This document shows positions 2,214 through 4,601 of a DNA stretch of 64,000 nucleotides, one piece after another (position 1 is the first letter of the stretch; each line of letters starts with the position of its first letter). The notes below the pieces were generated by a model that was not told the origin of the DNA, did not search any database, and saw only the letters and a list, made by a program, of their open reading frames with translations. Source of the stretch: Calditrichaceae bacterium (GTDB lineage Bacteria; Calditrichota; Calditrichia; Calditrichales; JBFXGD01); the NCBI GenBank assembly GCA_050173015.1, contig JBFXLE010000017.1, positions 1 to 64,000 on the forward strand, given 5' to 3'. The position numbers and the translations under genes were made by a program.

Positions 2214-3162
2214 CTGTCTCGCCTTTCAGCACCTGCATAAATTGCCATACCTGGCGCTCGATAATCTGCAGATAATTTAGTTTTAAATTTTTATATGTTA
2301 ATTTGTTTTCTACCGCTTTTCTATATTGCTCAAATATGATCCCCAAACCCTCCTTCGTTATTTTAATCTTATCATTTTCCTGTTGAAAATGTTCAGGCCT
2401 GATCTGTTTTCTGTTTATCATTGTGATGACCAGACTATCCGCCACCGGGGCGCGGAACTCTTCCATCAAATCCGATACCAGCGCCGGATGCCCGTACTGA
2501 AGTTCATGCAGATAACCGCAGTATGGATCAAGCCCTGCCGCCTCCACAAAGGCGTAAACATTGTTAAATAACAGCGTATAGCATAAGGAAAGCAAAATAT
2601 TAACCGGATCGGGCGGGGGATGCTTGATTCTCTTCTTAAAACCATAGGTCTCCACCAGCATGGCGGGCAAATGTCTGAAATATAAGGCCGAAAAACTGCC
2701 TTCAAGCCCGCGCAGCACATCCGTTTCACCGGCCACCGCTATGCTTCTGATCATGTTTTCCAGACGTTGTTTAAATGAATCATACACCACCGGAGCGCGT
2801 TTCTGTATCATACGGCCGTAATTTTGGGCCTTTGCCCTGACCACCGCCCCGGAAAAGCGCAGCCGGAATACCTCATCATCCAGTTTATCATACTGCAGGC
2901 GGCGGATAAATACATTCTTCGAAACCGGGGAAGCCAATCTTCCCTTGTATTTTCCGTCAATGCTTAAAAAAGCCACATCAATTCCCTTCTGCAGCAGATA
3001 ACTCATCAGACCGGCGCTGATTTCCACACGGCCCATCAGTATCAGATGCTTCAGGTTAACCATCGGCTGTATAAAAATTTTTTTGGATTCCTTCGTCATA
3101 ATCATTTGACCGCCGCGTCTGCTTAACCTCCCCCCCTGCTCGCTGATAACGACTGTGCTCAT
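2185..3162 (-). CDS. cas1: CRISPR-associated integrase Cas1 (stand-alone, no RT or Cas4 fusion)
   Basis: LRGLEG..SALYF, PPPDPVNILLSLCYTLL, GLDPYCGYLH and LVSDLMEEFRAPVAD motifs. Start moved to ATG 3162 (MSTVVISEQG), which overlaps the upstream TAA and follows an AGGAGG SD. Confidence 0.97.
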   Translation of the reverse strand: MSTVVISEQGGRLSRRGGQMIMTKESKKIFIQPMVNLKHLILMGRVEISAGLMSYLLQKGIDVAFLSIDGKYKGRLASPVSKNVFIRRLQYDKLDDEVFRLRFSGAVVRAKAQNYGRMIQKRAPVVYDSFKQRLENMIRSIAVAGETDVLRGLEGSFSALYFRHLPAMLVETYGFKKRIKHPPPDPVNILLSLCYTLLFNNVYAFVEAAGLDPYCGYLHELQYGHPALVSDLMEEFRAPVADSLVITMINRKQIRPEHFQQENDKIKITKEGLGIIFEQYRKAVENKLTYKNLKLNYLQIIERQVWQFMQVLKGETDEYEGFRSP

Positions 3163-4601
3163 TATCGCTTCCTCCTTGCCGTGACCGGCAGCGGCAGATG
3201 GAAATTTTTCCATTGGCGATTCAGAATTTCAAGGATATTCTCCTCCCATGATTCGGCCACGGACGGGCCGGCGGCGATCCATACTTCATCAAACAGGACA
3301 AAACTGATCCGTAAATCTGTCTTTTCGCTTTGAATCCGGCGGTCAATCTCAATCAGGCCGCGGTTAAATAAATCCGAAGCGCTTCCCTGAATGAGCCGGT
3401 TCATCAGTTTACCGTTATAATTTGCTTCCGAGGGATCCAGGCCGATAAACTTGCCACCAATGGTAGTAACGCCGCCCTCCGGTTTTGCCCGGTCCCGCAG
3501 CTCGGTTCTCAGCTCATCCATCGCCTCAATCAGCCGCCATAAAAAAGGTTGCGGCGTAAAGGGCGGCATAACAGAGGCGCCGTTGATGATGCCGTTCAAA
3601 TACCGCTTTATTTCTCCGCGGTCATAACGCTTCTCTTTTTGAGAACAGATCGCGGTGTAAATATCTCCACGAGGAACATCATCCAGACTTAATAGATGTT
3701 CACCGAGCAGAATGTTTAACAGGATGTTGGGTTCGATTGCCGCGTAATCATACCGCCAGATTTTATACCCATCGGGCGGCTGAATTTCTGTCATTCTTTT
3801 CTCTTCCGGCCAGGTCTGAAGTCCCGGATTGCGGTAGGTGATCCTGCCGGTCACCGTGCCCACGCGGATTTCGGGAAAAACATGCCTGCCGCTGACAATA
3901 ACACCCTGCCGGTTCAGCTTTTCAAGAACAGGTTCCAGTGCATTGTAAGGCTCCGGAATCTCCGGCCGGATTTTTAATTTCACATCCGAAGCGATTTTCG
4001 CCGTGGGAGAAAGCAGCTTTTTCACGTCATCGCCGAGCAAATCCATTTCGCTTATTTCTTTAAGCGCCTGCGCGCATTGCCGCCGGTGATAATCCGTGTT
4101 TTTTGATGGTTTTGTGCCATTTTCCAGCAGTCCGGCAATAAATTTTTTGACGCGATCATCCGCCGTTTCATCATGATAGCGCTGAATCAGCGTGTCATAT
4201 TCGGCGCGCCCATAATAAAAAATGAGCCTTTCTTCTTCGCTTTGACAATCCGATTCATGGATAACCCTGAGCAACCTGGCCCGCAGACGAAGATTTTTTT
4301 CGCGGAGTCCCTGAAAAATGACCACCCTTGCTTCACTGTCATTCAAATAGGTCGCGAGAGTATCAAAGTCCTGTAAAGCGAATAGATAGCGGAACTGTTC
4401 TTCGTTATTCAGCTTCAGCCCGTAATTTTCGATTAAATAGGCGGTTTCAAGTCGCACAGCGGGGTCATTGTCGTACAGCAGCGGAATTAACATGCGGGCT
4501 TTTTGAGAGGTTACGGAACCGGCGAGGTGATGCAGCCACTCCATTTTCTGAGAGCGGCTTTCCGTCATGCTGATCTGCTGAATCATTTCGGAAAGATTCA
4601 T
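3162..4601 (-). CDS. HEAT-like N-terminus + minimal family A (PolA-like) DNA polymerase domain, CRISPR-associated
   Basis: TGRITYRNPGLQ (cf. TGRLSSxxPNLQ), motif A DYAAIE, GDIY, motif B RGEIK..LNGIING, GGVTTIGG, NRLIQGSASD and motif C VLFDEV. N-terminal LLYDNDPAVRLETA is HEAT-like. Confidence 0.88.
   Translation of the reverse strand: MNLSEMIQQISMTESRSQKMEWLHHLAGSVTSQKARMLIPLLYDNDPAVRLETAYLIENYGLKLNNEEQFRYLFALQDFDTLATYLNDSEARVVIFQGLREKNLRLRARLLRVIHESDCQSEEERLIFYYGRAEYDTLIQRYHDETADDRVKKFIAGLLENGTKPSKNTDYHRRQCAQALKEISEMDLLGDDVKKLLSPTAKIASDVKLKIRPEIPEPYNALEPVLEKLNRQGVIVSGRHVFPEIRVGTVTGRITYRNPGLQTWPEEKRMTEIQPPDGYKIWRYDYAAIEPNILLNILLGEHLLSLDDVPRGDIYTAICSQKEKRYDRGEIKRYLNGIINGASVMPPFTPQPFLWRLIEAMDELRTELRDRAKPEGGVTTIGGKFIGLDPSEANYNGKLMNRLIQGSASDLFNRGLIEIDRRIQSEKTDLRISFVLFDEVWIAAGPSVAESWEENILEILNRQWKNFHLPLPVTARRKR

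Follow-up and report, generated by a model that had tools for sequence, protein, structure and literature searches.

Why would a DNA polymerase of the Pol I family be encoded directly against cas1? The question is raised by one end of a 64,000-nucleotide stretch of DNA from a Calditrichaceae bacterium (GenBank assembly GCA_050173015.1, contig JBFXLE010000017.1, positions 1 to 64,000 of the forward strand; the whole stretch is called the window below). There, an open reading frame (ORF) of 479 residues on the minus strand (3162..4601), here named PolA*, runs into the start of cas1 and joins a HEAT-like domain to a thumb-less family A polymerase, as read from the ORF, its Pfam DNA_pol_A match and an AlphaFold model. 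To our knowledge, the dedicated adaptation polymerases described so far are reverse transcriptases (RTs) and CAPP primase-polymerases only. The polA gene of E. coli has been genetically implicated in adaptation, but neither the polymerase that mends the array once a spacer has been inserted nor the way in which prespacers arise in type III systems is settled. The evidence assembled here points to PolA* as a catalytically competent, minimal family A polymerase that would serve as a dedicated subunit of a type III adaptation cassette formed with a TPR-repeat protein, Cas1 and Cas2, and that would make short DNA patches for Cas1-Cas2.

The initial annotation, made without database searches, had described a 479-residue ORF with a TAATG overlap with cas1, family A motifs at given residues, palm and fingers that profile and structure comparison should recover, a deleted thumb, no visible 3'-5' exonuclease or 5' nuclease motifs, and a HEAT-like N-terminus; all of these readings held under the searches and predictions reported below. 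The stop codon of PolA* (TAA, 3164-3162) and the ATG of cas1 (3162-3160) have one base in common on the minus strand. A Shine-Dalgarno sequence (AAGGAGG) precedes the cas1 ATG at a distance of 8 nt. The ATG at 4601 is supported as the start of PolA*, since homologue alignments begin at residues 1-6. The ORF is not an assembly artefact, because contigs from two other studies bridge the PolA*/cas1 junction without indels in the PolA* ORF. The first of these contigs matches positions 1900-5714 of the window and differs from it by 12 substitutions and by the loss of one base between the TPR gene and PolA*; the second matches 1900-3669 with 37 substitutions and no gaps.

The fold of the C-terminal half is that of a Pol I-like enzyme. 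PolA* scores 48.4 bits on Pfam DNA_pol_A (PF00476), above the curated threshold of 34.3 bits (E 8.8e-13), and searches of the PDB, with the single sequence as well as with a profile, return solely Pol I, Pol theta and Pol nu. PolA* is not a member of the bacterial Pol I equivalog families, scoring 26 bits against cut-offs of 600 (TIGR00593) and 720 (NF004397). The AlphaFold model, built from 35 homologues, has a mean predicted local distance difference test score (pLDDT) of 92 and a predicted template modelling score (pTM) of 0.56, the latter because a poorly defined linker at residues 207-216 joins two domains. When residues 214-479 of the model were compared with solved family A enzymes using VIA-align, about 255 residues were aligned with Z scores of 21.5-23.8 and root-mean-square deviations of 2.3-3.3; the matches were M. 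smegmatis Pol1, Bst, Taq, Klenow, Pol theta, Pol nu, T7 and apicoplast polymerases.

Approximately 266 residues of PolA* thus cover what spans about 400 residues in each solved family A enzyme. In HMMER comparison with the Bst large fragment, profile positions 216-239, holding a helix and the "G-V-x-V-D" strand, pair with chain residues 180-203, a match that is weak and non-significant when taken alone, and profile positions 247-470 pair with chain residues 314-569. Because these two pieces flank the gap, about 110 residues of the Bst chain, corresponding to the thumb, stand opposite seven profile positions. At the place of the thumb, the PolA* model has short beta strands alone (E234-257); a further 30 or so missing residues are distributed over the fingers. 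Judged by this alignment and by the predicted structure, PolA* is a family A polymerase without a thumb, whose mini polymerase domain (residues 214-479, 3165..3962, minus strand) is delimited by VIA-align, the profile alignment and residue counts. No exonuclease or 5' nuclease family matched PolA* at E<=0.1 in Pfam or NCBIfam. Compared with Pol I (Klenow, Bst, Taq) and Pol theta/nu, the homologous palm and fingers, motifs A, B and C and the TGR and PxLQ elements have been kept, whereas the thumb of about 110 residues and the nuclease domains of Pol I are gone.

The active site was examined by aligning sequences drawn from the best 150 profile-search hits to the domain profile, namely 53 HEAT-type members, 18 thumb-less relatives of non-HEAT type and 78 other PolA proteins. 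By their roles, the relevant residues of PolA* are the catalytic D285, D438 and E439, the dNTP (deoxynucleoside triphosphate)-binding R253, R328 and K332, together with E290 and the O-helix residues N336 and N340. Across 35 aligned homologues, T251/R253, P259/Q262, D285, E290, R328, K332, N401, Q405, D410, D438 and E439 are invariant or nearly so. Every HEAT-type member (53/53) has D285, D438, R253, E290, R328 and K332, and 51/53 have E439. We take the Klenow counterparts to be D705 (for D285), D882 (D438), R668 (R253), E710 (E290), R754 (R328), K758 (K332) and E883 (E439), the correspondence of positions resting on the PDB searches, including the Bst alignment.

Around these retained residues, four positions are systematically changed. 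N336 is Asn in 48/53 HEAT-type members and 17/18 non-HEAT relatives, and F, L or Y in 72/78 other PolA; N340 is Asn in 49/53 and 16/18, and Tyr in 73/78 other PolA. Only three and two of the 78 other PolA carry Asn at the positions of N336 and N340, respectively. The residue preceding the motif C carboxylates, F437, is Phe or Tyr in 50/53 HEAT-type members and 15/18 non-HEAT relatives, and His in 72/78 other PolA, whereas W441 is Trp in 52/53 and 18/18, and I, L or V in 67/78. Presumably, N336, N340 and F437 correspond to F762, Y766 and H881 of Klenow. PolA* accordingly lacks the O-helix aromatic pair (Phe/Tyr ... Tyr) by which family A is recognised, and differs from Pol I in the replacement of the O-helix Phe/Tyr by Asn and of the motif C His by Phe/Tyr. 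Taken at the level of sequence, these features suggest an active enzyme whose pocket for nucleotide and template has been remodelled, rather than a dead one. That it would be a catalytically dead DNA-binding scaffold, as the missing thumb and altered O-helix might suggest, is very improbable, since the catalytic carboxylates and dNTP-binding residues occur in 51-53 of the 53 members, which would be unexpected for a dead enzyme.

The N-terminal domain (residues 1-205, 3987..4601, minus strand) was delimited as a HEAT-like alpha-solenoid by folding alone, by fold search and by its conserved columns. Residues 1-210 folded alone give a twelve-helix solenoid with a pLDDT of 92.5. The HEAT signal in the sequence is faint (Pfam HEAT, E 0.023; HEAT_2 in 3/37 homologues), and the solved look-alikes, symplekin HEAT, YibA and alphaRep (HEAT/ARM), are unspecific, with Z<=8. 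A protein atlas places the domain near HEAT_2 clusters at a TM score of about 0.5. Fold searching thus returned generic solenoids solely, and no specific family could be named for this domain. Its conserved columns are N168/Y171-H172-R173/Q175-C176 and C119.

Relatives of the polymerase domain fall into two tiers. A word-indexed search recovered 37 proteins of 386-496 residues at E<=5e-50, the window's own included, and an exhaustive profile search 50 representatives at E<=1e-30. In the second tier (E 1e-64 to 1e-49), the polymerase half alone aligns, residue for residue through the thumb gap. Ten of these proteins were scanned, and a CHC2 zinc ribbon with Toprim was found in seven and Toprim alone in three; by their domain content, the second tier (P0060-P0076) are uncharacterised DnaG-type primases fused to the mini polymerase, and such a fusion would be a bacterial-type primase-polymerase. 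These fusions are the nearest domain relatives of PolA*, which they match in thumb-less length and in the Asn/Asn, Phe/Tyr and Trp signature, but their own N-terminus is the CHC2 zinc ribbon and Toprim primase and not HEAT. With the polymerase-domain profile, the scores of HEAT-type members lie at 263-393 bits, except for four that reach only 146.5-220 bits: P0054, P0056 and P0073 match the HEAT profile weakly, and P0058, of 376 residues, does not match it. The scores are 174-232 bits in the DnaG-type tier and at most 97 bits in all other PolA. A FastTree phylogeny joins the HEAT-type and DnaG-type thumb-less groups in one clade (support 0.885). Rooted with a single outgroup, the tree places the DnaG group among deep HEAT-type branches, in a branching order that is unreliable.

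The sole DnaG-type locus that was read, L015, had come up as a PolA* member without cas1 and was ruled out, being a frameshifted DnaG-primase/mini-PolA fusion that was excluded from the counts. It adjoins AAA_25, DUF3987 and a tyrosine integrase rather than cas genes, which suggests that the gene lies in an integrated element. Within L015, the fusion gene is broken into three frames at 9000-10800, and a second DnaG-like gene lies at about 1320-2400. No DnaG fusion was detected in 86 genomes of the window's phylum with P0075 as query, PolA* genes alone being matched. Among phage records, the fusion P0060 found partial matches alone, at less than 30% identity and uninformative, and among viral contigs P0075 found two weak polymerase-only matches at 26% identity. 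More short, possibly thumb-less family A polymerases are indicated outside the clade, because P0088, P0100, P0130, P0141 and others (370-400 residues) align from the first ten or so positions of the profile over 252-273 residues; P0088 matches phage DNA polymerase PHROGs and P0130 matches none.

Is the neighbourhood of cas1 then a property of the family or of this genome? The initial annotation had set the enrichment of homologues next to cas1 beforehand as the decisive test. Loci were collected from a one-genome-per-species scan, a metagenome scan, which added three new loci only, and the 86 genomes of the window's phylum; merging duplicates left 23 distinct loci besides the window, and removing L015 left 22. 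Neighbours were mapped by tblastn with the window proteins. In the window, cas1 (325 residues, 2185..3162, minus strand; Pfam Cas_Cas1 267 bits, TIGR00287 248 bits) follows PolA*, cas2 (101 residues, 1908..2213, minus strand; Pfam CRISPR_Cas2 78.5 bits) overlaps the end of cas1, and the gene for a TPR-repeat protein (404 residues, 4647..5861, minus strand; TPR_1, TPR_2 and further TPR families) is the first of this conserved four-gene cassette. Elsewhere, the enrichment is borne out: cas1 lies directly downstream of PolA* in 18/18 loci with sequence there (four contigs end), the TPR gene directly upstream in 19/19 (three contigs leave no room), and cas2 after cas1 in all 16 loci with room, the remaining contigs ending. 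From the PolA* stop to the cas1 start, the genes overlap or are separated by at most about 30 nt in 14/18 loci and by 72-227 nt in four, starts being approximate, so that tight coupling of PolA* to cas1 is common, not universal. PolA* is 26-45% identical to the window protein across the linked loci. Given its conserved adjacency to core cas genes in such diverged loci, PolA* is a CRISPR-associated gene in the operational sense.

The four genes also diverge together. Pairwise distances of PolA*, Cas1, the TPR protein and Cas2, taken from 12-16 loci, are correlated with r of 0.83-0.93, a level reached by none of 2000 label permutations. Moreover, the similarity of both other-study contigs to the window ends at 5854, seven bases inside the start of the TPR gene (5861), which suggests that TPR-PolA*-cas1-cas2 moves as one unit, with different upstream genes in other strains. 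Beyond 5854, both contigs continue into one common unrelated sequence. Prediction of a complex between PolA* and the TPR protein gave a score of 0.21 against a mark of 0.32, which speaks neither for nor against binding. With 111 bits, the TPR protein aligns to positions 46-422 of the 448 in PDLC01172, a PADLOC model titled 'TPR repeats containing protein', so this partner of PolA* may already be catalogued in a defence context.

Two loci depart from the intact arrangement of single genes. At L036/L038 (G066:C303:4579-5990), PolA* is carried by two overlapping frames that meet at the linker between the HEAT and polymerase domains (profile 2-239 and 238-471); the gene has either suffered a frameshift or is naturally divided between its two domains. 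In L001 (3344-4530), the TPR gene lies in two frames with stops between, possibly through a frameshift or sequencing error, and PolA*, cas1 and cas2 are intact.

The taxon labels of the loci are Calditrichota, Deferribacteres, Phycisphaerae and Cytophagia, all of metagenome-assembled genomes (MAGs), and such labels are fallible, as one 'Caldisericaceae' MAG groups with the window's own order. Spread is patchy: with G000 counted, 15 of the phylum's 86 genomes carry PolA*, and the sole genome of the same genus lacks it. A plasmid search with PolA* gave no match. The window's genome has three cas1 genes and a single PolA*. It also encodes, on another contig, a canonical Pol I, which scores 547 bits and keeps F/Y in motif B as well as the VHDE of motif C; PolA* is therefore an accessory addition and not the housekeeping polymerase.

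The rest of the locus places the cassette in a type III setting. Upstream on the same minus strand lie genes for a CARF ring-nuclease/Csm6-type protein of the NE0113 family (7677..8735; TIGR02584 189.6 bits), a TM1812-family, CARF-like CRISPR-associated protein (8800..10536; TIGR02221 71.8 bits, slightly below the cut-off of 76.25), a Card1-type CARF nuclease (10797..11912; Pfam CARF_Card1 66.7 bits, Card1_endonuc 59 bits) and cas6 (12045..12965; Pfam CRISPR_Cas6 51.7 bits). With this gene content, the locus is a type III accessory-plus-adaptation region. Near the cassette in other loci, effector genes of type III-A (Csm1-5, in L006) and III-B (Cmr3/4/6, in L014) were found. Cas10 and type III-D-like RAMP genes of the window's genome sit on another contig, C38, where the stretch 6000-24000 (L054) holds Cas10-like, Csx10-like, Csx7-like and TIGR03986 RAMPs and a ring-nuclease-like CARF protein. 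These effector genes adjoin a radical-SAM gene and a gene for a 595-residue protein with weak TPR and Lon-like matches.

Downstream of cas2, a CRISPR array with a 37-nt repeat occupies 56..1653, with 19 full repeat copies at 246-1653 and one from about 56, and spacers of about 35-43 nt. Transcription of the array would be from the minus strand, since the repeat, read on that strand, ends in ATTGAGAC and the direction of the genes matches. The stretch of about 255 nt between cas2 and the first repeat (1654..1907, minus strand) is, from its position alone, the probable leader. At the far end of the array, where the contig begins at window base 1, an 83-nt stretch at 1-83 recurs at 191-273 with 99% identity. 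The duplicated stretch (window 1-273) contains non-repeat sequence and the start of a repeat; either a spacer-repeat unit has been duplicated here or the end of the array has decayed.

What step, then, might a thumb-less polymerase take in such a cassette? Tentatively, and with a little less than even confidence, PolA* is proposed to fill the pair of single-stranded repeat gaps that full-site integration produces. In this scheme, Cas1-Cas2 would insert a new spacer at the leader-proximal repeat, leaving the 37-nt repeat single-stranded on either side of the spacer. PolA* would then fill both short gaps and stop, leaving a nick for ligase. Its recruitment would fall to the HEAT-like domain and the TPR protein, which would tether it to the integration complex and replace the DNA grip lost with the thumb. 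A polymerase without a thumb is expected to be distributive, and without a 5' nuclease it would be unable to nick-translate into the leader or spacer; the two properties together would suit filling of a 37-nt gap followed by a stop. A functional precedent for short gap filling is found in Pol X of African swine fever virus (ASFV), which the available text of PMC5330486 describes as a thumb-less gap-filling polymerase; it differs from PolA* in being a family X enzyme of viral repair with an unrelated fold. For the type III PrimPol, the part of Shah et al. (PMC6546367) at hand proposed 'DNA repair following spacer acquisition'.

Several points weigh against gap filling. The present evidence does not separate it from synthesis of prespacers, and the nearest relatives of the domain, being fused to DnaG, argue for the extension of primers on single-stranded DNA, an activity more in keeping with the making of prespacers. 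The Asn/Asn pair of the O-helix may reflect a substrate or template out of the ordinary. Moreover, the gene context covers 22 loci against 50 representatives at E<=1e-30, in a library of 50% identity with DnaG fusions included, and the co-divergence, lacking a housekeeping-gene control, shows block inheritance only, as ordinary vertical descent of the whole locus would give the same result.

The main competing explanation is that PolA* converts single-stranded DNA or RNA fragments into double-stranded prespacers for Cas1-Cas2, possibly in the role of RT-Cas1 or CAPP and with short RNA or DNA fragments as primers. This is conceivable, if somewhat doubtful; RNA comes into question as template because the type III systems concerned target RNA. 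A core shared, down to the Asn/Asn signature, with DnaG fusions looks built for primer extension, a prespacer of about 35-43 nt would also fit a distributive enzyme, and the altered O-helix could relax the choice of template or sugar. In addition, the cassette is found in type III loci, where RTs and primase-polymerases are known additions to adaptation according to the portions available of PMC8211822, PMC10415136 and PMC6546367. However, no primase or RT domain was detected in the cassette with Pfam and NCBIfam, nor any fused or adjacent primase in 18 loci by tblastn, a search that covered homologues of the window's own genes alone; the steric-gate Glu is retained in 53/53 members, and RNA templating is without support in the present evidence.

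The known systems invoked here resemble PolA* in arrangement and differ in lineage. As far as the accessible text of PMC8211822 goes, CAPP primase-polymerases bind Cas1, and both the generation of prespacers and the repair of gaps have been put forward as their tasks. CAPP, and especially the CAPP-TPR of Marinitoga piezophila, shares with PolA* a polymerase beside cas1-cas2, a type III setting and TPR repeats, but it has the archaeo-eukaryotic primase (AEP) fold, primase activity and a fused TPR region (same source, same portion), whereas PolA* has a family A core, no primase in its cassette and a separate TPR gene. No CAPP family was among the six NCBIfam hits of PolA* at E<=0.1, and CAPP is an analogue and not a homologue. 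RT-Cas1 and other CRISPR-associated RTs, as covered in the available part of PMC10415136, likewise bring a polymerase into the adaptation module of RNA-targeting systems; unlike PolA*, they belong to another polymerase superfamily, are often fused to Cas1, and have RNA templating shown for them. A dual role, or another task at DNA ends such as blunting or filling prespacer overhangs before integration together with Cas1-Cas2 and the TPR protein, draws on the same linkage and co-divergence, and CAPP has been proposed for several steps (PMC8211822, in its available portion); it has no specific support, would be hard to distinguish from gap filling or prespacer synthesis, and is considered unlikely.

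It is also quite unlikely that PolA* is a defence effector or regulator outside adaptation that travels with cas1-cas2, for example by making a DNA product on infection. The CARF effector genes upstream have the same orientation, and PolA* matches the PADLOC RTasPolA model (PDLC03816) with 44.8 bits, weakly and over the post-thumb part alone. A family A polymerase working beside UG9 defence RTs has been described in PMC9226505, within the text available of it; like PolA*, it is a small, exonuclease-less family A polymerase of a defence locus, but it is of a different lineage and its partner is an RT and not Cas1. No RT was found in the PolA* locus with Pfam and NCBIfam scans. Run on ten proteins of 441-515 residues, the RTasPolA model gave 84-178 bits in eight, 45.5 in one and no hit in one. 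The eight strong scorers fall outside the thumb-less clade and PolA* itself scores low, so its lineage is separate from RTasPolA. Furthermore, PolA* is constantly between the TPR gene and cas1 rather than among the effectors, and the end of other-study similarity at the TPR start suggests a four-gene unit.

Polymerization by PolA* in the service of spacer acquisition, whether after or before integration, would be new as far as the literature searched can tell. The initial annotation had recognised no dedicated PolA in a cas1-linked role, which is consistent with that literature in the portions available. No report of a cas1-linked family A polymerase was found in the full-text literature, a scope that leaves out subscription journals and supplementary tables (those of Shmakov, Shah, Mestre et al. 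could list the family). The accessible parts of the CAPP (PMC8211822) and CART (PMC10415136) papers, of Shah et al. (PMC6546367) and of the Shmakov preprint (bioRxiv 10.1101/270033) mention no such polymerase, and a literature search for thumb-less family A polymerases found ASFV Pol X, of family X, alone. One homologue is named 'DNA polymerase [Caldithrix abyssi]' by NCBI, so the gene family is annotated but apparently uninterpreted.

Altogether, PolA* looks like a third, previously undescribed kind of polymerase recruited to spacer recording. In a bolder version, which is held to be fairly unlikely as a whole, the cassette would be a self-contained machine to 'integrate and repair' or 'copy and integrate', with a third polymerase superfamily recruited to Cas1 after RTs and AEP primase-polymerases; the 266-residue core would define a new minimal, thumb-less Asn/Asn class of family A shared with DnaG fusions of mobile elements, and its altered pocket would take templates or substrates that Pol I rejects, for example RNA from type III interference to be turned into DNA prespacers. 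A family A polymerase linked to cas1 provides a clean, genetically separable handle on the array-repair or prespacer step, in a cassette of four co-oriented genes that is transferable to a test host. With its natural palm-plus-fingers core of about 266 residues, PolA* gives a measure of how far a family A polymerase can be reduced in size, and its conserved Asn/Asn O-helix is unexplored enzymology. PolA* may also serve as a compact, distributive, non-displacing fill-in polymerase, and the link to DnaG fusions points to an unstudied bacterial primase-polymerase module in mobile elements.

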